This document shows, piece after piece, positions 984 through 8,601 of a stretch of 10,579 bases of DNA. Numbering within the stretch: position 1 is the stretch's first letter; each line of letters starts with the position of its first letter. Below the pieces are notes generated by a model. That model did no database searches and had not been told where the DNA came from. It worked only from the letters and a program-made list of their open reading frames with translations. The stretch covers positions 1-10,579 of the forward strand of contig RDOA01000075.1 in the NCBI GenBank assembly GCA_011364925.1, given 5' to 3'. The translations under genes were made by a program, and so were the position numbers. Origin of the DNA: Promethearchaeota archaeon. Its GTDB lineage: Archaea > Asgardarchaeota > Lokiarchaeia > Sigyniarchaeales > SOKP01.

Positions 984-1625
984 TCATGTTTCATCACTAC
1001 TTTCCTTAATATCTGTTTGAACGAGCTGAACACCACAATAAGGACAATATATTACTTTTCTCCCAATTTCAGAACCACAATTAGCACATTTAGTTTTAAA
1101 TTTAAGAGTTGTAGGAATGCTATCTCTGATTCTTTCAAATGATGCGTTTAGTAATTCTTGAACCTCTGTGACTACTTCTTTTCTATTTTCTTCGGGATGG
1201 GATTTAATATATATTGACGAGAGTTCTACAACGAAGTTTTCTATCAGAATAAGTTGTTCTGAATAATTCTTGTTAACCTTCAATTTCAGCAACTCTTCTC
1301 CTGCTTTGGTTAGGGTATAGAGCTTTCTTAGAGGACCAATTGGACTTTTAACCATTCTAGATTTGAGAAATCCATTTTTTTCTAGTTTCGATAAAATTGG
1401 GTAAATTGTTCCTGATTTAGCTTCCCACGTTCCAGCAAAGTGGTTATTTAATGCTAGAATTAGATCATAACCGGATAAAGCTTGACTGTTGAAAATTACT
1501 TCAACGATTGTAAATTCCAAAGGAGTTAGTTTATTTTTGGTAATATTCGAAAAAATTTCTTGTTTTATTTGAGATCTTAGTTCTTCGATATCCTCTTCGA
1601 GATCTAAGAATTTGCCTAACCACAT
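984..1625 (-). CDS. PadR-family winged-helix transcriptional regulator with C-terminal zinc ribbon
   Basis: PadR motifs SGYDL..., SGTIYPILSKLEKNGFL and RKLYTLTKAGEELL. C-terminal CANC-x10-CPYC. ATG lies 2 nt after the upstream stop, with AGGAG upstream. Confidence 0.9.
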   Translation of the reverse strand: MWLGKFLDLEEDIEELRSQIKQEIFSNITKNKLTPLEFTIVEVIFNSQALSGYDLILALNNHFAGTWEAKSGTIYPILSKLEKNGFLKSRMVKSPIGPLRKLYTLTKAGEELLKLKVNKNYSEQLILIENFVVELSSIYIKSHPEENRKEVVTEVQELLNASFERIRDSIPTTLKFKTKCANCGSEIGRKVIYCPYCGVQLVQTDIKESSDET

Positions 1626-1627
1626 TA

Positions 1628-2161
1628 TTAATCTACTCCTAAAAGATTATTACGTTTTAATCTTTTTTGCATTTTTTCCATTTCTTTCTCAATTGCTCGT
1701 TCTCTCCTTGACTTTAATCCATCCTGATCTTCAGTGGCACCTCGATGAAACACTAAATATACGACTATATGAATTACCAATCCAGCGCCCCAAAAAATAG
1801 CAGGATATAGCATCCAGAGTAAATGGATATTAGTTGCAAAATTGATTAGATACAATAATAATATTACGAATACATATGCAACAAGATGGAAAATTACCGC
1901 TCTTTTAGCCATTGGATATACTCCACGTGCGTAAACCATGTAGGCTGTAAGATGTTCAGCGATACCAATAAGCCATCCAAAAATAGGATAGAAAAACCAA
2001 ATAATCTCGCGAGAAAAGTACCAGTTTATAAGTACTAGTAATATTGAAATAACTATGAATATTCCAATGTGAATTTTCACAGACATTCTAAAATTAACTT
2101 TTTTACGAGCTATTAAGCGGAGATCGTCTTCTGAAAACCCATTATACCTTTTTACGCTCAA
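1628..2161 (-). CDS. Membrane protein with two tandem 2TM-type domains (about 4 TM helices)
   Basis: Two internal repeats: HIGIFIVISILLVLINWYFSREIIWFFYPIFGWLIGIAEH and HLVAYVFVILLLYLINFATNIHLLWMLYPAIFWGAGLVIH (H..IN..W..YP...W.G...H), typical of the 2TM domain. Charged C-terminal helix ERAIEKEMEKM. TTG start preceded by AGGAGA. Confidence 0.85.
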   Translation of the reverse strand: MSVKRYNGFSEDDLRLIARKKVNFRMSVKIHIGIFIVISILLVLINWYFSREIIWFFYPIFGWLIGIAEHLTAYMVYARGVYPMAKRAVIFHLVAYVFVILLLYLINFATNIHLLWMLYPAIFWGAGLVIHIVVYLVFHRGATEDQDGLKSRRERAIEKEMEKMQKRLKRNNLLGVD

Positions 2162-2239
2162 TTTTATCTCCTAATACTTTAGATTTTATGTTACTATTGA
2201 TTTAAACAAAATTTTCTACTAGAAGAGTAGGATTGATAG

Positions 2240-2285
2240 TATTTAAACTTGTTGAATCTACATAGTTGATGTTGAAACTACATAG
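2240..2285. promoter_or_regulatory. Minus-strand TATA box plus tandem 16-bp direct repeat, a putative PadR operator
   Basis: TGTTGAATCTACATAG (2250-2265) and TGTTGAAACTACATAG (2270-2285): 15/16 identical, 20-bp period, each an imperfect palindrome (ATGTTG-AAA-CTACAT). They lie just upstream of TTTAAATA on minus (2247-2240). Confidence 0.6.
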
Positions 2286-2339
2286 ACAAAATTAAAGCTT
2301 ATCAAGATGATTAAAAGTATTAAACTGCGTAGAGTTAGG

Positions 2340-2370
2340 AAAAAGTTTTAATATCACAATTATTGTTATA
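2340..2370 (+). promoter_or_regulatory. Candidate BRE/TATA promoter of the PAP2 gene with an adjacent palindrome
   Basis: AAAAAG-TTTTAATA (2340-2353) followed by the imperfect palindrome TATCACAAT-T-ATTGTTATA (2352-2370). Confidence 0.45.
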
Positions 2371-2402
2371 GTCCCATCTATTGGTTTAATTGGTTTATCG
2401 CG

Positions 2403-3044
2403 TTGTTGTCTGGATATATCGAAAAATTGGAAAAGTGGGATCGAAAAACATTTCTTATCCTCTATGAAAGTGATTTTTCTCAGAGAACAAAATTATTTGC
2501 GAAAATATTTAGTTTTTTTGGAAGTTTTTATTTTTGGGGCCTTCTCTGGGTAACTTGGTTTATCTATGGATACCTTACAAAAGATTATTATTTACTGGTT
2601 TTATTTACAGGAGCGTTCGATCAATCTATAATTATCCACTTCATTATTCGATATGGAATTGTCAGGCGAAATCGTCCTTTCATAAAACTTAAGAAAGAGG
2701 GAGTAAAACAACACGATGGATTTATAAAAATTCCTTACTTAATGTCAGAATCTGAAGGGAAATCGTTCCCGAGTGGTCACGTAACGTTTTTTCTATTATT
2801 TGGGATGGTTTTTGCTTTTTATTTCAATAGTTGGCTTCTCTTTTTTATAATTGTAGGATTAGATGTAGTAATGGCATTTTCACGGCTAATCTTAGGAGTT
2901 CATTTCCCTAGCGATGTCATTTTTGGTTTTGCTTTTGCTTTTGCTTATGCATTTTTATATCTTGGATGGACATATGTTTATTGGGTTGGGTTCTACTACT
3001 GGATAGGTCCAATTTTCTCGAACATTTTCCATTTTTGGAGATAA
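2403..3044 (+). CDS. PAP2-family membrane phosphatase (lipid / polyprenyl-pyrophosphate phosphatase-like)
   Basis: Motif 1-like RYGIVRRNRP, motif 2 SFPSGH and motif 3 SRLILGVHFPSD, plus multiple TM segments. Start is TTG 2403 or 2406. Confidence 0.9.
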   Translation: MLSGYIEKLEKWDRKTFLILYESDFSQRTKLFAKIFSFFGSFYFWGLLWVTWFIYGYLTKDYYLLVLFTGAFDQSIIIHFIIRYGIVRRNRPFIKLKKEGVKQHDGFIKIPYLMSESEGKSFPSGHVTFFLLFGMVFAFYFNSWLLFFIIVGLDVVMAFSRLILGVHFPSDVIFGFAFAFAYAFLYLGWTYVYWVGFYYWIGPIFSNIFHFWR

Positions 3045-3114: not shown

Positions 3115-3642
3115 TTAATACCAATCTATGAATTCATCTAGAGGTCTTCTTTTTCTTTCTTCTTTTTTTTCCAGAGACTCATCGATTATACCAACAGTGA
3201 TGACTCCCATCAGTTCATACTTATCTGGAGAAAATTTAAATATCTCGCATATTTTTTCCTTATTCTTTAAGATTTCTCCAATCCAGACTGCCCCTAATCC
3301 CTTCGCATGAACAGCCAATAGTATGTTTTGAATAAACGCTCCCATTGCTAGGATATCTTTTACGCGATCATATCCTCTGTCTAAATCTAAAAAGACAACG
3401 AGATTAAGGAAAGCACTTTCAATAATTCCCCCATACTCAGTATTTTCTGCTATCATCCTCTTGACCGTGGGATGAGAGACGATTTGAACTTTCCATGGCT
3501 GGTTATTTCTCCCAGAGGGAGCCCATCGCCCACAGTCAATAATTTCTTTTATTACTTGATTATCAATTTTTTTGTAAACGAAATTCCTGACAGATCTGCG
3601 AGATCTGATTAGATTTAGCAAATCATTTGTTTTTGATTCCAT
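3115..3642 (-). CDS. Nitroreductase-family FMN-dependent oxidoreductase
   Basis: Motifs IRSRRSVRNF, RWAPSGRNNQPW and QNILLAVHAKGLGAVWIG. Confidence 0.92.
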   Translation of the reverse strand: MESKTNDLLNLIRSRRSVRNFVYKKIDNQVIKEIIDCGRWAPSGRNNQPWKVQIVSHPTVKRMIAENTEYGGIIESAFLNLVVFLDLDRGYDRVKDILAMGAFIQNILLAVHAKGLGAVWIGEILKNKEKICEIFKFSPDKYELMGVITVGIIDESLEKKEERKRRPLDEFIDWY

Positions 3643-3680: not shown

Positions 3681-3713
3681 CATAAAGAAAGGGTAGAAGG
3701 CTTAATATAACAT

Positions 3714-3733
3714 AAAAATAAAGAAAGGAAAAG
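3714..3733 (-). terminator. Candidate U-rich terminator of the DUF35/thiolase-fold operon
   Basis: Minus strand reads TTTTCCTTTCTTTATTTTT shortly after the stop at 3750. Confidence 0.4.
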
Positions 3734-3749
3734 TTTATTCATTTTTTTT

Positions 3750-4277
3750 TCATTTTTTTGGATTCATGTCTTCAGCATCGTCTTCTAATACATCGTAGTA
3801 TTCAATATCCATTAATCCGCCAGTTCTGTCTTCAGCCCAATGGATCTTAACCGGCATACCTATATATGTGTCTTTAAAATCTACTTCAGGATTCAATTGT
3901 GCAATAATAGCTGTATCAGCCCCATCTTGATGAATTAAAACGGTTGGTTTTTCTTGTACTTCCCCCGTCTCTGGATCTTTCAGATATACAATCGCAAATG
4001 TAGCAACTCTACCAGTCTCCCTAAGGTCAACCCATTGATCTGGTTTTACGAGGCATTTTCCACATACTAATCGAGGTGGAAAAAATACACGATTGCACCC
4101 TGAGCATTGGTTCCCTACGATTTTTTTATCTTTCAACTTTTTAAGAAATTCATTGTTATGAGTAATGTTAAATTTGTACTGATAGCTCGCTAAATACCAG
4201 TTGCCTGGCATTGTTCGCGTTCTCACATAGTCTTTCTTAACATAATCGAGAGATTTTCTTTGAGTTAATTTTGACAT
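3750..4277 (-). CDS. DUF35-family Zn-ribbon/OB-fold protein (acyl-CoA binding / thiolase scaffold), copy B
   Basis: KKIVGNQCSGCNRVFFPPRLVCGKC zinc ribbon, then WVDL..TGRVATF and YIGMPVKIHW OB-fold motifs. GGAGGAGGT ribosome site upstream. Confidence 0.92.
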   Translation of the reverse strand: MSKLTQRKSLDYVKKDYVRTRTMPGNWYLASYQYKFNITHNNEFLKKLKDKKIVGNQCSGCNRVFFPPRLVCGKCLVKPDQWVDLRETGRVATFAIVYLKDPETGEVQEKPTVLIHQDGADTAIIAQLNPEVDFKDTYIGMPVKIHWAEDRTGGLMDIEYYDVLEDDAEDMNPKK

Positions 4278-4282
4278 TTACT

Positions 4283-5533
4283 TTACCTCCTCCATTTTCT
4301 TTGTGGTTCATCCGACATAACCATTAGTGTACATAAGTTTAAAGAACCACCCCAACCATGTCCTATTGAAGTGTGTACCGTTTTCGGGACTTGATTGTCA
4401 GCCTTGCCCATTATCTGGAGCGCCGCTTCTGCAGGTCTCTCCATTGCTGAAGCACCAATGGCGTTTGTCGAATTGACTCCTCCAGAGCAATTAATCGGTA
4501 ATTCTCCTTTTAAAGAAGTAACACCAGTTTCATACATCTTAGGAGCGGTGGTTTCTTCAAATAAACCTAATTTTTCCACCCACATAAGTTCTTGATTTGG
4601 GAACGGAGAGTAAACCTCGGCATAATCAATTTCTTTTCTAGGAAATGAAATACCCGCTTGATAATAGGCTAGTTCGGAGGATTTCATTGCACCTAATTGT
4701 TCCGATGGATCAATCTGACCTGTTCCACTTCCATCGTATCCGAGAACCGCTGATTCATTTGCTACGCTCGCTACTCCATTTACATAAACTGGAATATCAC
4801 ACATATCTTTTGCTTTTTCTTCTATTGTAAACAGCATTGCACAAGCCCCATCTGAAGCGGGACAGACCATACCATATCTTAAGGGGTAAGAGATGTATGG
4901 TGTGTCGAGAACCTCTTCGACGGTTATATCAGGCATTTTTAAGTGTGACCACCAAGTCTTCGCAGCATTATGCCTATTTTGGACAACAACCCTCGCTAAA
5001 TCTTCTTCAGTAATATGAGTTTTACTCATATAATTTGTTGCTTGGTAAGCCGCTACGCCTATTGCAGCTCCTGCTGATAAAAGACGTGATAACTGGTCGT
5101 AAGGAATTCCCATTGTATTTAGCACAGAGATTTCACCATACGCAACGCTTCCAAGACCAACGCTGGTATCGCCTTGAGATTGTTGTTCAAAAGCAACTGC
5201 TAATACTGTGTCAATCTTTGGTAAACCAGCAGCAACGGTGTAATATCCTGAGATTGCTACTGTCCCCCCCGTCGTGCCTCCCGTTGTAACTCTTAATAAT
5301 GGTTTGTTTCTTGCCCCCATCCAATCTGTCATCCATAATTCTGGTAGATTTACTCCTTCAAACGCCGGCATATTGCCATTAACATAGGCATCAATATCAT
5401 TAAAGTCAACTCCAGGTGCGTTTTTTAAGCAGTCTGAAACTGCCTCACTTACTAGTTCTGCCATATTAACATCAGATCGTTTTGATGCATGCTCACTAAA
5501 GCCAGCAGATACTATAGCTACTTGTCTTCCCAT
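4283..5533 (-). CDS. SCP2-type thiolase-fold protein lacking the catalytic Cys, Ltp3-like (putative aldolase subunit)
   Basis: Thiolase fold (VAIVSAG, CPASDGACAMLF, ELPINCSGG). The nucleophile loop reads TTGGTTG instead of CxS, the HDxF position reads EVYSPF, and the GHP position reads STNAIGAS. GGAGGT SD upstream. The Ltp3 resemblance is from recalled motifs, not a search. Confidence 0.85.
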   Translation of the reverse strand: MGRQVAIVSAGFSEHASKRSDVNMAELVSEAVSDCLKNAPGVDFNDIDAYVNGNMPAFEGVNLPELWMTDWMGARNKPLLRVTTGGTTGGTVAISGYYTVAAGLPKIDTVLAVAFEQQSQGDTSVGLGSVAYGEISVLNTMGIPYDQLSRLLSAGAAIGVAAYQATNYMSKTHITEEDLARVVVQNRHNAAKTWWSHLKMPDITVEEVLDTPYISYPLRYGMVCPASDGACAMLFTIEEKAKDMCDIPVYVNGVASVANESAVLGYDGSGTGQIDPSEQLGAMKSSELAYYQAGISFPRKEIDYAEVYSPFPNQELMWVEKLGLFEETTAPKMYETGVTSLKGELPINCSGGVNSTNAIGASAMERPAEAALQIMGKADNQVPKTVHTSIGHGWGGSLNLCTLMVMSDEPQRKWRR

Positions 5534-5535
5534 TT

Positions 5536-6678
5536 TTAATTACCTCCCTCCAATACGAATACTATATTATTTTGAGCACACATACCTATTTGTCCAGAAG
5601 CAACTGCCTTTTTTGCATTATTAACTTGATAACCGTGTGCTTCTCCTCTTAGTTGTTTAGCAGCTTCTATTATTCTAATCAAGCCAGTCGCACAAGGAGG
5701 ATTTCCACTAATAGCTCCGCCTGAAGGATTAATAGAGAGTTCACCGTTAATATCGGAATTAATTGTTGCTCCTTTCCCTTTATCCGCAAATCCTAAGGCT
5801 TCTGATAAAATTAATTCTTCATGGGCATTCGATTCGAATAGTTCTGCTACATCTATTTCTTTCTGTGGATTCTTAATCCCAGCACTTTCAAATGCTATTT
5901 TCCCTGCCATTTCCATCGACTTACTCTCGTATAAATTACGATCTCCAAGGTAATAAGCATCTTGAGAATACCCTACACCAGTAATCCACACGGGGTTATC
6001 TGTTATTTTCAAGGCTTGCCTTTCGGGTGCAAGTAATAACGCCGCAACACCGTCACAGGGTTGTGCAACCATTAATTCAGTTACAGGATCAGCATAAATG
6101 TCAGAATTCAATACATCCTCAATAGTAATATTTGAGTTTTGAGCTTCTGCTACTGCTAGAGGATTCTTGGCAGCATTTTTATGGTTTTTTACCGCAACTT
6201 TGGCAATATCTTCAGCACTGGCACCATATTTTTCCATATACGATCTCATTTGAAAACCCGCTGAAGTGATATCGTTTACATATGCTAATTGCCTTTCCCA
6301 TGTGGGATCAGTTTCATATAACCGAGTGGAATGATAAGGAAAGCAGGAAGGCATACTACCGCCCCAAATTACCGCTAATTTATGGTTCCCCGATAAAATT
6401 CTCATTAATCCATACAATACAGCGTGCGCGCCATCCATCTCTACTTTACTCTCGTCCGCCATATATCCTCCACCAACTTCAACTGTAAAGCAATTCGATA
6501 TTGTACGTCCATCGTAATAGTCGTTTGTGCACGAAATTACCGTAGAAATATCTTTTTTCTTTAATCCTGCCATGTCTATAGCACCTCTGACGGCTTCGAA
6601 TATCATTTCATAGCGTCCATAATTTGCGTCTGAATACATCTTTACTTGATAATACCCAACAATTCCAACTTTTTCCAT
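5536..6678 (-). CDS. SCP2-type thiolase-fold protein lacking the catalytic Cys, Ltp4-like
   Basis: Thiolase fold (VGIVGY, QPCDGVAALLLA, INPSGG). The nucleophile loop reads ESKVEMDGAHA, the HDxF position reads ELFESN, and the GHP position reads GNPPCATG. ATG 6678 is preferred over GTG 6690 because GAGGTG (6695-6690) lies 11 nt upstream of it. Confidence 0.85.
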   Translation of the reverse strand: MEKVGIVGYYQVKMYSDANYGRYEMIFEAVRGAIDMAGLKKKDISTVISCTNDYYDGRTISNCFTVEVGGGYMADESKVEMDGAHAVLYGLMRILSGNHKLAVIWGGSMPSCFPYHSTRLYETDPTWERQLAYVNDITSAGFQMRSYMEKYGASAEDIAKVAVKNHKNAAKNPLAVAEAQNSNITIEDVLNSDIYADPVTELMVAQPCDGVAALLLAPERQALKITDNPVWITGVGYSQDAYYLGDRNLYESKSMEMAGKIAFESAGIKNPQKEIDVAELFESNAHEELILSEALGFADKGKGATINSDINGELSINPSGGAISGNPPCATGLIRIIEAAKQLRGEAHGYQVNNAKKAVASGQIGMCAQNNIVFVLEGGN

Positions 6679-6693
6679 TTTGGATATCACACC

Positions 6694-7155
6694 TCACACT
6701 TTAACGAAACCCTTAATATCTGATGGGTCTCCTTTTGGTTTTTCTGCCCAATCGATTTTCACCTTCATTCCGATTTTAACTTCACTAGGTTCAAGATCTA
6801 GCAACCTATAGACTATGGATGTATTACTCCCGTCAATTTGCACCATTCCAAGTAATAAATTTTTAGCTTTTCTAAGAGTTCTATCATTGATTCTGTAAGG
6901 CGTTATGGTATAATTTACGACCGTACCTGTATCGGGTAAATCGACCCAATTCTCTTCTAAGGGAATTACAACATTACATTCTCCGCAAACTTTTCTCGGA
7001 GGGACAAAGACCGCACCACACTTTGTGCATTTGTTGCCAATGACTTTTTTATTTTCTAAATTGTCATAAAACTTATCTAAATAGCGTCCGACCCAGAAAT
7101 TAAAGTCAGCGCGAACTAGGCCCCTATTTGCAACAATAACTTTATCTTCACTCAT
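6694..7155 (-). CDS. DUF35-family Zn-ribbon/OB-fold protein, copy A
   Basis: KKVIGNKCTKCGAVFVPPRKVCGEC, WVDLPDTGTVVNYT and VKIGMKVKIDW. First gene of the operon. Confidence 0.92.
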   Translation of the reverse strand: MSEDKVIVANRGLVRADFNFWVGRYLDKFYDNLENKKVIGNKCTKCGAVFVPPRKVCGECNVVIPLEENWVDLPDTGTVVNYTITPYRINDRTLRKAKNLLLGMVQIDGSNTSIVYRLLDLEPSEVKIGMKVKIDWAEKPKGDPSDIKGFVKV

Positions 7156-7365
7156 TTTAGTCCCGTTTTTATTTTAATTTTTATGAGAATTAAATTGCTA
7201 ATTCTTTAAATACTTATTATATTGAGAAGTCCTTAACCTAATACTATATGGTAAAATGTAGAATTTCGAATAATTATTACTTAATCAATAGACCCACCTT
7301 AAAATCTGATGTACGATATCTTCGTTGAATAATATTTTTCTTTAAATGAAAAAGATCAATAAAGA

Positions 7366-7385
7366 ATAAATGAACATTCATTCAG
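7366..7385. promoter_or_regulatory. Palindromic operator (TetR/FadR-box-like) in the divergent promoter region
   Basis: ATAAATGAACATTCATTCAG contains perfect arms AATGAA (7369-7374) and TTCATT (7377-7382) around CA. Confidence 0.5.
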
Positions 7386-7434
7386 TGAACGCGGATTCGG
7401 TAAAAAGTGAGAAACTTTAACCATTGCAAGTGTA

Positions 7435-7450
7435 GGAAAACATTTATATA
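7435..7450 (+). promoter_or_regulatory. Candidate BRE/TATA promoter of the NMO/FabK-like gene
   Basis: GGAAAACA-TTTATATA. A second candidate, TTTATATAAA, lies at 7479-7488. Confidence 0.45.
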
Positions 7451-7542
7451 CTACAATTCAATTTTGATAAAGTAATTATTTATATAAAAAACTATTTGAG
7501 TAAATTTACTCTAATATCTAACTGAAAAGAATGTGACTTAAA

Positions 7543-8601
7543 ATGGTTATTGAAACGAATATTACCAAGATGCTTGGAATTAAACACCCAATCCTAAGTG
7601 CTCCAATGGGTCCGTTTTATACGACTAAATTAACTGTAGCAGTGTCAGAAGCGGGTGGATTAGGCGTATTAAGCCATGTGACTCTTCATGGGACTGTGAC
7701 TCTAAACGAAATGAAGAAAAGCATGGAATATGTCGTAGAGCACACTGATAAGCCTTTTGGATTTAATATTAGAACAGCTAGATTACAACCAGACGCTATA
7801 AAACTTTGCAGGCAATTACCTAAATTTATTATGGAAAACCAACGCATAAGAGAACAGTGCGTTTTCTTACTTACTAGTGCCGGATCACCAAAAATGATGT
7901 ATAACAAGCATTTTGATGCACTTAGAGACTCTGGTTCACAAATTAAACATTTTCATGTCGCTCCCTCGATTGATTTAGCTAAAAAGCTCGTAGATGGCGG
8001 AATCGATGGAATAGTTGCTACAGGAATCGAAGGTGGAGGTCATCAATCCTACGACAACATTAGTACATTAGTTCTTTTGCAAGAAGTTCGACAAAAGTTA
8101 CCGGAAGTGCCGGTAATCGCTTCAGGAGGGTACGCTACGGGTGAGGGATTAGCGTCAGCATTATCTATGGGGGCTGGCGCTATTGCGATGGGTTCTCGCT
8201 TTATTTCATCAAAAGAATGTGAATTTCACGATAATTACAAACAGATTGTTGTTAATTCCACTACATCTGACACAGAACTCAAGACGGGAATCTTTGGTCC
8301 TGCTCGAGTCTGGAAGAACGCACTTGCCGAAACCCAGAGTTTAGTTGAAAGTAAAGAAGAAAAACAGGCTGAAGAAAGATCAATGTCTAAAGTTGAAAGG
8401 GAATTAGCTGAACTTGAAATGACCTATAAGGGTAATGTGCAAGAGGGGACTGTATATTTAGGACAAAGTATTGGACTAATTAATCGCGTTGAAACTGTTA
8501 AGGACATCATTGAAAATATCGTATACGACGCGGAAAAAAGCTTAACGAACGCATATAATACGATCAAACCGACCTTTATAGAGCAAACAGTAGAATTATA
8601 G
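7543..8601 (+). CDS. Nitronate monooxygenase / FabK-like FMN-dependent TIM-barrel oxidoreductase (possible enoyl-CoA reductase)
   Basis: Motifs ITKMLGIKHPILSAPMG, VSEAGGLG, KPFGFN, GIEGGGH (catalytic His), PVIASGG, MGSRF and GQSIGLI. Confidence 0.9.
   Translation: MVIETNITKMLGIKHPILSAPMGPFYTTKLTVAVSEAGGLGVLSHVTLHGTVTLNEMKKSMEYVVEHTDKPFGFNIRTARLQPDAIKLCRQLPKFIMENQRIREQCVFLLTSAGSPKMMYNKHFDALRDSGSQIKHFHVAPSIDLAKKLVDGGIDGIVATGIEGGGHQSYDNISTLVLLQEVRQKLPEVPVIASGGYATGEGLASALSMGAGAIAMGSRFISSKECEFHDNYKQIVVNSTTSDTELKTGIFGPARVWKNALAETQSLVESKEEKQAEERSMSKVERELAELEMTYKGNVQEGTVYLGQSIGLINRVETVKDIIENIVYDAEKSLTNAYNTIKPTFIEQTVEL

Follow-up and report, generated by a model that had tools for sequence, protein, structure and literature searches.

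What kind of enzyme is encoded by two adjacent thiolase-like genes that stand between two genes for DUF35 proteins? The question is raised by a 10,579-nucleotide stretch of DNA from a Promethearchaeota archaeon (contig RDOA01000075.1, here C88; the whole stretch is referred to as the window), which is part of a 3.9-Mb Asgard archaeon genome with a marker-gene completeness of 100%. Four minus-strand open reading frames (ORFs) fill positions 3750–7155 in the order DUF35, thiolase-like (384 residues), thiolase-like (416 residues), DUF35, and are separated by gaps of 3, 2 and 5 nucleotides. According to Pfam, both large proteins are composed of Thiolase_N and Thiolase_C_1 domains, and both small proteins of zf-ChsH2 and OB_ChsH2_C domains, i.e., DUF35 (PF12172 and PF01796), in which a rubredoxin-like zinc ribbon precedes an OB fold. 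Our reading, held with moderate confidence, is that the four genes encode a single hetero-oligomeric enzyme of the Ltp3/Ltp4 type, which would be non-thiolytic and most likely catalyse retro-aldol C–C cleavage of a 3-hydroxyacyl-coenzyme A (CoA) ester. The four genes are as follows.

6694–7155, minus strand: DUF35 protein P0004 (153 residues), first gene, adjoining the Ltp4-like gene; zf-ChsH2 30.9 bits and OB_ChsH2_C 35.7 bits (Pfam), Cys4 ribbon, 'by-T4' clade.
5536–6690, minus strand: Ltp4-like Cys-less thiolase-fold subunit P0003 (384 residues); Thiolase_N and Thiolase_C_1, NF005924 184 bits, loop deletion, tree.
4283–5533, minus strand: Ltp3-like Cys-less thiolase-fold subunit P0002 (416 residues), the candidate catalytic subunit; NF006180 366 bits, best BLAST matches, tree, AlphaFold model.
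3750–4277, minus strand: DUF35 protein P0001 (175 residues), last gene, adjoining the Ltp3-like gene; zf-ChsH2 32.9 bits and OB_ChsH2_C 20.3 bits (Pfam), Cys4 ribbon, 'by-T3' clade.

These are real genes and not chance ORFs, because their orthologues are highly identical (80–95% within the genus and 64–74% in other Asgard families). The P0003 gene starts with GTG, although translation could instead begin at an ATG (6678) four codons further on. Both DUF35 proteins contain intact CxxC...CxxC ribbons (C58/C61/C72/C75 in P0001 and C43/C46/C57/C60 in P0004); the zinc ribbon of P0001 scores above the Pfam cut-off and its OB domain below it (20.3 versus 27.1 bits).

To describe the active sites, we aligned P0002 and P0003 with the other thiolase-fold proteins of the genome and with mycobacterial Ltp2, Ltp3 and Ltp4. 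The canonical SCP2-type/archaeal thiolase signature consists of the nucleophilic Cys, the HDCF motif and the His of the GHP motif, and all three elements are missing in both proteins. In P0002, G86 occupies the position of the nucleophilic Cys, Y308-S-P-F replaces HDCF, and a one-residue deletion is followed by Asn357 (T-N357-A) at the place of the GHP His. In P0003, the Cys loop is shortened by three residues (E84-M-D86-G), and F-E-S-N and G-N-P stand in place of HDCF and GHP, respectively. In the wider clades to which the two proteins belong (T3 for P0002 and T4 for P0003, as described below), T3 members have Gly at the Cys site in 96%, Tyr at the H of HDCF in 81% and Asn at the H of GHP in 90%; the Cys-loop deletion is found in 88–93% of the T4 clade and the Asp in 86%. 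Among orthologues, G86, Y308, N357 and H392 of P0002 are conserved, and D86 and C371 of P0003 are invariant in 12 orthologues. As the initial annotation had proposed, neither protein is thus an ordinary thiolase, and because neither subunit can form an acyl-Cys intermediate, a complex of the two is not a thiolase either. The genes carry the name acetyl-CoA C-acetyltransferase (JGI names) yet encode proteins without the thiolase residues; the mis-annotation expected in the initial annotation is thus supported.

Cys-bearing archaeal thiolase/DUF35 systems share with the operon the archaeal thiolase fold, the DUF35 partner and the annotation name, and they are among the best structural matches. 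They differ in that they are homodimers that keep Cys, HDCF and GHP, and the genome has its own copies of such systems, on contigs C37 and C38. On C37, a canonical thiolase gene is accompanied by a fusion of 3-hydroxy-3-methylglutaryl-CoA synthase (HMGCS) and DUF35; no HMGCS gene is present in the window. The operon is therefore distinct from the archaeal thiolase/HMGCS/DUF35 complex, in line with the initial annotation, since the latter is encoded separately on C37. Immediately downstream of the C37 thiolase and HMGCS–DUF35 genes lies a gene for a LAGLIDADG_3-domain protein (locus L061, 3–1061).

We considered whether P0002 and P0003 could still be a working ketothiolase (KT)/DUF35 pair of the archaeal fatty acid synthesis (FAS) or beta-oxidation type (as Saci_1121/1120), performing Claisen chemistry with non-canonical residues such as a relocated cysteine. 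A preprint (10.1101/2024.07.05.601840) shows that fatty acid synthesis in Sulfolobus is driven by KT/DUF35 complexes and counts a mean of 3.8 such pairs in each Asgard genome as candidates. An enoyl-reductase-like NMO gene adjoins the operon, and the invariant Cys371 of P0003 and the mostly conserved Cys349 of P0002 are located near the catalytic loops. However, at the frequencies given above the nucleophile site is Gly in the T3 clade and deleted in the T4 clade, HDCF and GHP are gone in both, Cys349 is not conserved outside close orthologues, and Cys371 stands at the acid/base loop and not at the nucleophile site. The C38 locus, with a complete Cys/HDCF/GHP thiolase, a DUF35 protein and a MaoC dehydratase, is the better candidate for an FAS-type role, and we regard a ketothiolase function of P0002 and P0003 as very improbable.

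The family to which the two proteins belong was approached through two NCBIfam models, NF005924/PRK07937 (curated cut-off 419 bits) and NF006180/PRK08313 (514 bits). In three reference genomes (Mycolicibacterium vanbaalenii, M. peregrinum and Nocardia vermiculata), these models match adjacent genes far above the cut-offs, at 584–645 and 741–759 bits, respectively. In M. vanbaalenii (645 and 759 bits), the pair is found downstream of a 345-residue protein with two OB_ChsH2_C domains, with a P450 gene close by and a luciferase-like gene on either side of the cluster; this arrangement is the Rv3518c–Rv3523 layout. Based on this match, NF005924 is the Ltp4 model, NF006180 the Ltp3 model and Rv3521 a fused double DUF35 protein, so that the parts of the Asgard operon match those of actinobacteria one for one. 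The gene order DUF35-ltp4-ltp3, also noted in the initial annotation, corresponds to Rv3521-ltp4-ltp3.

P0002 scored 366.5 bits with NF006180 versus 203.5 bits for the next family, and its top match was Ltp3 in all three actinobacterial genomes (214–221 bits, 39–40% identity over the full length; next best 108 bits). P0003 reached 184 bits with NF005924, and three generic thiolase-domain models scored slightly higher (198–211 bits); on NF005924, mycobacterial paralogues other than Ltp4 do not exceed about 90 bits. The active site pattern of P0002 (Gly at the Cys site, Y-x-P-F, deletion followed by Asn) is also that of M. vanbaalenii Ltp3. The motifs VEMD(G/A)A and N(P/A)IGAS, named in the initial annotation as typical of Ltp4 and Ltp3, are present in the actual M. 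vanbaalenii proteins: HVEMDAAWA of its Ltp4 corresponds to KVEMDGAHA here, and SNPIGASG of its Ltp3 to TNAIGASA.

We built three trees, namely a 158-row FastTree, a quick IQ-TREE with the LG+C20 model on 78 rows and a careful IQ-TREE on the same 78 rows. They covered the paralogues of the genome, Asgard pairs, actinobacterial references and representatives from an all-protein search, and all three gave one picture. In the careful IQ-TREE, P0003 and Ltp4 are located in a 15-row clade (support 93/98) inside the 22-row T4 clade (96/85), and P0002 and Ltp3 in the 32-row T3 clade (98/84). In a third type of pair, which splits likewise, one protein groups next to T4 and its partner next to T3. Neither the canonical thiolases nor Ltp2 belong to the T3/T4 group; the Ltp2 aldolase clade is its sister group. 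A position of the two proteins outside the Ltp3/Ltp4 clades was not seen, and the assignment of an Ltp4-like and an Ltp3-like protein is upheld by the preference among the NCBIfam models, the best matches, the shared indels and motifs, and the phylogeny. Judged by these sequence comparisons, the Asgard operon is an archaeal relative of the known bacterial Ltp3/Ltp4 'aldol-lyase' kind.

With the actinobacterial Ltp3 (Rv3523)–Ltp4 (Rv3522)–Rv3521 system, which serves the catabolism of C24-branched sterol side chains, the operon shares two different Cys-less SCP2-type thiolase-fold genes side by side, the Ltp4-type gene first, and two DUF35 domains alongside. The Ltp4-type proteins have in common the Cys-loop deletion and E-M-D-(G/A), and the Ltp3-type proteins Gly at the Cys site, Y-x-P-F and (S/T)-N-(P/A)-I-G-A. 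There are also differences. Sequence identity is only 32–40%, the host is an anaerobic Asgard archaeon without a sterol-catabolic context, and P0002 carries two insertions (at about residues 120–160 and 260–275) that are modelled with low confidence. Furthermore, the Asgard DUF35 proteins are encoded by separate flanking genes and keep all four ribbon cysteines, whereas the actinobacterial Rv3521-type protein is a single upstream tandem fusion without zinc-ribbon cysteines in either half (L064 5477–6514, L041 2573–3562 and L042 2543–3556). Across eight loci, the DUF35 proteins form separate 'by-T4' and 'by-T3' clades, to which P0004 and P0001 belong, respectively; the two DUF35 paralogues co-diverge with their thiolase-fold partners.

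The DUF35-T4-T3-DUF35 order is kept in 10 further Asgard loci from four families, and wherever a sampled Asgard genome has genes of the T4 and T3 types, the two stand next to each other. An orthologue at least 70% identical to P0002 was identified in 19 of the 25 genomes sampled from the same family and in 3 of 19 from a second family, and some T3-like gene in 32 of the 151 sampled Asgard genomes. The thiolase-fold pair is 86–95% identical within the genus and 70–74% across families, which is higher than for the DUF35 partners. One Asgard family (f19; G031, G050, G067, G073 and G091) has five to seven T4/T3 pairs per genome, often beside crotonase and NMO-like genes, in what is a lineage-specific expansion. 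At another locus (L079, G144:C6:64000–82000; 1982–13484), three paralogous Cys-less T4/T3 cassettes, each with two DUF35 genes, adjoin one another within about 11.5 kb, one for each pair type in the tree.

How such an assembly could work is suggested by Ltp2–ChsH2(DUF35) (PDB 6OK1) and Sal–Shy(DUF35) (PDB 9MYR). In these structures, a thiolase-fold dimer lies between two DUF35 domains, the Tyr at the first position of the HDCF equivalent is the catalytic base, and the Gly at the old Cys site contacts the substrate hydroxyl (PMC12329534). P0002 shares with both the combination of SCP2-thiolase fold and DUF35, the Gly in place of the nucleophilic Cys and the Tyr at the first HDCF position, and its model superposes on their structures with a TM score of about 0.78–0.86. 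The Tyr of the T3 clade aligns with the Y of the Ltp2 YDHF motif; the catalytic-type Tyr is present in P0002 (Y308) and is replaced by F in P0003. The Ltp2 model NF005892 gives only 107 bits, and Ltp2 forms a separate clade. In Ltp2 and Sal, both of which are homodimers, DUF35 is part of the hydratase encoded ahead of them, whereas the Asgard operon encodes what would be a heteromeric pair with free-standing DUF35 proteins.

Based on this, we propose that P0003 (Ltp4-like) and P0002 (Ltp3-like) form a central heterodimer, each subunit capped by its own zinc-ribbon/OB DUF35 protein; the gene order DUF35-T4-T3-DUF35 would mirror the alpha-beta-beta-alpha layout of Ltp2–ChsH2(DUF35) and Sal–Shy(DUF35). 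The enzyme is predicted to cleave, or reversibly form, a C–C bond of a 3-hydroxyacyl-CoA, yielding an aldehyde or ketone and a shorter acyl-CoA. Tyr308 of P0002 could act as the base, like Tyr294 of Ltp2 and Tyr302 of Sal, with Gly86 and Asn357 lining the site. As Asp86 and Cys371 of P0003 are invariant, the T4 subunit need not be inert, and these two residues are candidates for the general acid. The substrate would probably be supplied by an acyl-CoA ligase, a flavoenzyme of the NMO or acyl-CoA dehydrogenase type that forms enoyl-CoA, and one of the crotonases of the genome; the carbonyl product may pass to nearby reductases of the aldo-keto reductase or alcohol dehydrogenase (ADH) type.

Several observations weigh against this proposal. 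P0002 scores below the Ltp3 cut-off (366 versus 514 bits) and P0003 below the Ltp4 cut-off (184 versus 419 bits); the two proteins are therefore deep relatives and not equivalogs or orthologues in function. BLAST does not single out Ltp4 for P0003 (112–114 bits over the full length versus 121 bits, partial, for another thiolase), so that it could be placed only with the help of the tree and of indels in common with Ltp4. The immediate sister grouping of P0002 and Ltp3 is weak (52/77), and it is the wider T3 clade alone that is well supported. The second catalytic residue, i.e., the general acid Tyr344 of Ltp2 or Cys304 of Sal, is not conserved, and Asn and Pro occupy those positions. No hydratase gene adjoins the cassette in the window. 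Ltp3–Ltp4 has been called a heteromeric aldol-lyase (PMC6678751; PMC6593523), a label based on gene knockouts (Wilbrink, 2012, as cited in these two papers), and we found no biochemical assay of any Ltp3/Ltp4-type enzyme in the searchable literature. Finally, in a Foldseek search, the P0002 model matched thiolases about as well as it matched acyltransferases and aldolases, which does not discriminate between functions. Of the claim in the initial annotation that these are Cys-less aldolases, the family placement and the presence of Gly86 and an Ltp2/Sal-type Tyr in P0002 stand, while the aldolase activity itself is suggested by analogy.

With all classical catalytic residues lost, the thiolase-fold pair might alternatively be inert and serve as a scaffold or acyl-CoA-binding module that organises the NMO-like reductase and hydratases. 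Inactive thiolase-fold partners are known, for example, in one reading of PhlA (PMC2954200), and DUF35 proteins act as scaffolds (PMC12329534; preprint 10.1101/2024.07.05.601840). The pair is nevertheless very strongly conserved, above the level of its DUF35 partners, and its invariant polar residues cluster in the old catalytic loops (G86, Y308, N357 and H392 in P0002; D86 and C371 in P0003), with the aldolase-type Tyr kept in most of the T3 clade. We consequently consider an inert pair improbable.

The structural comparisons bear on a further possibility, that the scaffold supports other chemistry: acyl transfer onto a carbon nucleophile (PhlABC and MucABC are examples), decarboxylation or a biosynthetic aldol condensation linked to the enoyl reductase of the NMO type. 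In its AlphaFold model (pLDDT 88.6), P0002 adopts the SCP2/archaeal thiolase fold (TM score 0.8–0.9), and the closest solved folds include the DUF35-partnered non-thiolase complexes 5M3K, 9SKH and 9VBO. The enoyl-reductase-like gene is the most frequent neighbour of the cassettes, and the general acid expected for an Ltp2/Sal mechanism is missing. On the other hand, PhlC-type acyltransferases use a nucleophilic Cys, which is absent here, and in the trees, which did not contain PhlC and MucC, the pair groups inside the Ltp3/Ltp4 clades, with Ltp2 as sister and away from canonical thiolases. Such chemistry therefore appears unlikely to us, and retro-aldol cleavage remains the reading that we prefer. 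Among solved structures, the best sequence match to P0002 is ST0096 of Sulfolobus tokodaii (PDB 4YZO; E-value 1e-32), which is likewise an archaeal thiolase fold without the nucleophilic Cys; it differs in keeping GHP and an HD-type motif and is closer to a lone paralogue of this genome on C56 than to the T3/T4 pair. This C56 protein (L062, 4927–6165) has PASGG for the Cys loop, keeps HDAF and GHP and resembles ST0096, a protein of solved structure that is itself uncharacterised.

Which 3-hydroxyacyl-CoA would be cleaved? The initial annotation favoured sterol or hopanoid side chains or isoprenoid chains, and the corresponding rival to a more general role is a retro-aldolase that removes sterol/hopanoid side-chain or isoprenoid (beta-methyl) branches once these have been carboxylated and hydrated, as happens when C24-branched sterols are broken down or in catabolism of the Atu type. 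Both of these routes depend on a carboxyltransferase (PF01039). The marker-complete genome contains no PF01039 match, although control genomes did match this family, and no KshA_C match; both searches by which the branch-removal idea was checked were thus negative. Likewise, Pfam identified no P450 or luciferase-type sterol genes near the operon in the window, and the window holds no sterol-catabolic neighbours of the kind that accompany the C24-branched sterol role (KstR regulon, cyp/fadD19/echA19 context).

The argument for branch removal is that P0002 and P0003 share clades and a part list with Ltp3 and Ltp4, that archaeal lipids are isoprenoid, and that genes for an acyl-CoA ligase and a crotonase flank a second, paralogous cassette on C62, in the way that fadD19 and echA19 accompany ltp3/ltp4. 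The low identity to Ltp3/Ltp4, the sub-cut-off scores and neighbours that vary by locus argue in the opposite direction, together with the negative searches, and the conserved neighbours are generic acyl-CoA enzymes. We judge a branch-removing function to be quite unlikely and find no support for the proposed sterol, hopanoid or isoprenoid substrate. The C62 cassette (L060, 1658–10410) comprises, in this order, genes for an acyl-CoA ligase, T4, T3, two DUF35 proteins, a crotonase, a flavin adenine dinucleotide (FAD) amine-oxidase/phytoene-desaturase-like protein and an FNR-like reductase with a 2Fe-2S domain; FAD amine-oxidase-like and FNR-like genes also stand beside the orthologous cassette in genome G147 (L081). 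The same contig encodes a 473-residue thiolase-fold protein without the nucleophilic Cys, with HDAF and a His at the GHP site (L060, 12249–14273), which forms its own clade with metagenomic proteins and is followed by a gene for a 199-residue protein without a Pfam match.

Flanking genes differ between the Asgard loci yet stay within acyl-CoA metabolism. An NMO/FabK-like homologue adjoins the cassette in 4 of the 10 other loci (L080, L082, L083 and L092) and is the most frequent neighbour. In two loci, an acyl-CoA ligase gene immediately follows the cassette; one locus has a divergent acyl-CoA dehydrogenase gene, and an aldo-keto reductase gene is a neighbour within the genus. In L080 (G147:C8), the NMO gene lies upstream and has a gene for a beta-keto acid cleavage enzyme (BKACE) beside it, and a zinc-dependent ADH gene lies directly downstream of the cassette (3737–4651 and 9942–10904). 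The genome of the window has 18 crotonase paralogues.

More broadly, the Cys-less T4/T3 cassettes with two DUF35 proteins might constitute a distinct, expanded class of Asgard CoA-ester aldolases that bypass blocks in beta-oxidation without oxygen, or that run in reverse as an elongation module; we put this forward as a speculative idea with little probability of being correct as a whole. If it were true, the cassettes would offer an oxygen-free route round blocks in branched, aromatic or isoprenoid-derived acyl chains or, in the other direction and with the NMO-type enoyl-CoA reductase, a non-Claisen elongation of chains from aldehyde plus acetyl-CoA. In either direction, a large share of the Asgard 'ketothiolase/DUF35 pairs' counted for fatty acid synthesis would not be thiolases. 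This touches the debate on the lipid divide, in which a 2024 preprint (10.1101/2024.07.05.601840) takes the number of Asgard thiolase/DUF35 pairs as a sign of fatty acid synthesis potential. Four of the seven DUF35 domains of the present genome belong to Cys-less cassettes, and such pair counts therefore overstate the real ketothiolases. The consequence for annotation is that the name acetyl-CoA C-acetyltransferase has been given to these genes, and to hundreds of related ones from metagenomes, although their products cannot perform thiolase chemistry. The Ltp3/Ltp4-type family is widespread, and because the archaeal version comprises four small subunits, each with a gene of its own, and its zinc ribbons are intact, it is a tractable system for the chemistry and quaternary structure of the family.

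The operon is bordered in the window by the following features.

3700–3749, minus strand: T-rich run after the stop codon of the operon, likely an archaeal terminator, followed by a TATA-like box of the next gene (by inspection).
7156–7542, no strand: AT-rich divergent intergenic region (GC about 0.33) that separates the operon from the NMO-like gene and presumably contains the promoters (by inspection).
7543–8601, plus strand: NMO/FabK-like flavin mononucleotide (FMN) oxidoreductase, divergent from the operon and a probable pathway partner (enoyl-CoA reductase or dehydrogenase); Pfam NMO 166 bits, TIGR03151 FabK 191 bits, below the cut-off of 453.

The T-rich run after the last stop codon and the separate TATA-like box of the adjacent nitroreductase gene (3115–3642) delimit the operon to the four genes. 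We rejected the nitroreductase gene as a fifth member, since it is a neighbour within the genus only and has its own TATA-like box. The perfect palindrome AATGAACATTCATT at 7369–7382, in the divergent intergenic region, had been suggested as a possible operator; it was not found in any orthologous locus, and since 38 of 200 shuffled sequences also gave a match, its occurrence is no rarer than expected by chance. In loci of other families, the genes for a PadR protein with a zinc ribbon, a tandem two-transmembrane (2TM) protein and a PAP2 phosphatase do not adjoin the cassette; within the genus, these genes, located at 984–3044 of the window, accompany it (L077 and L094).

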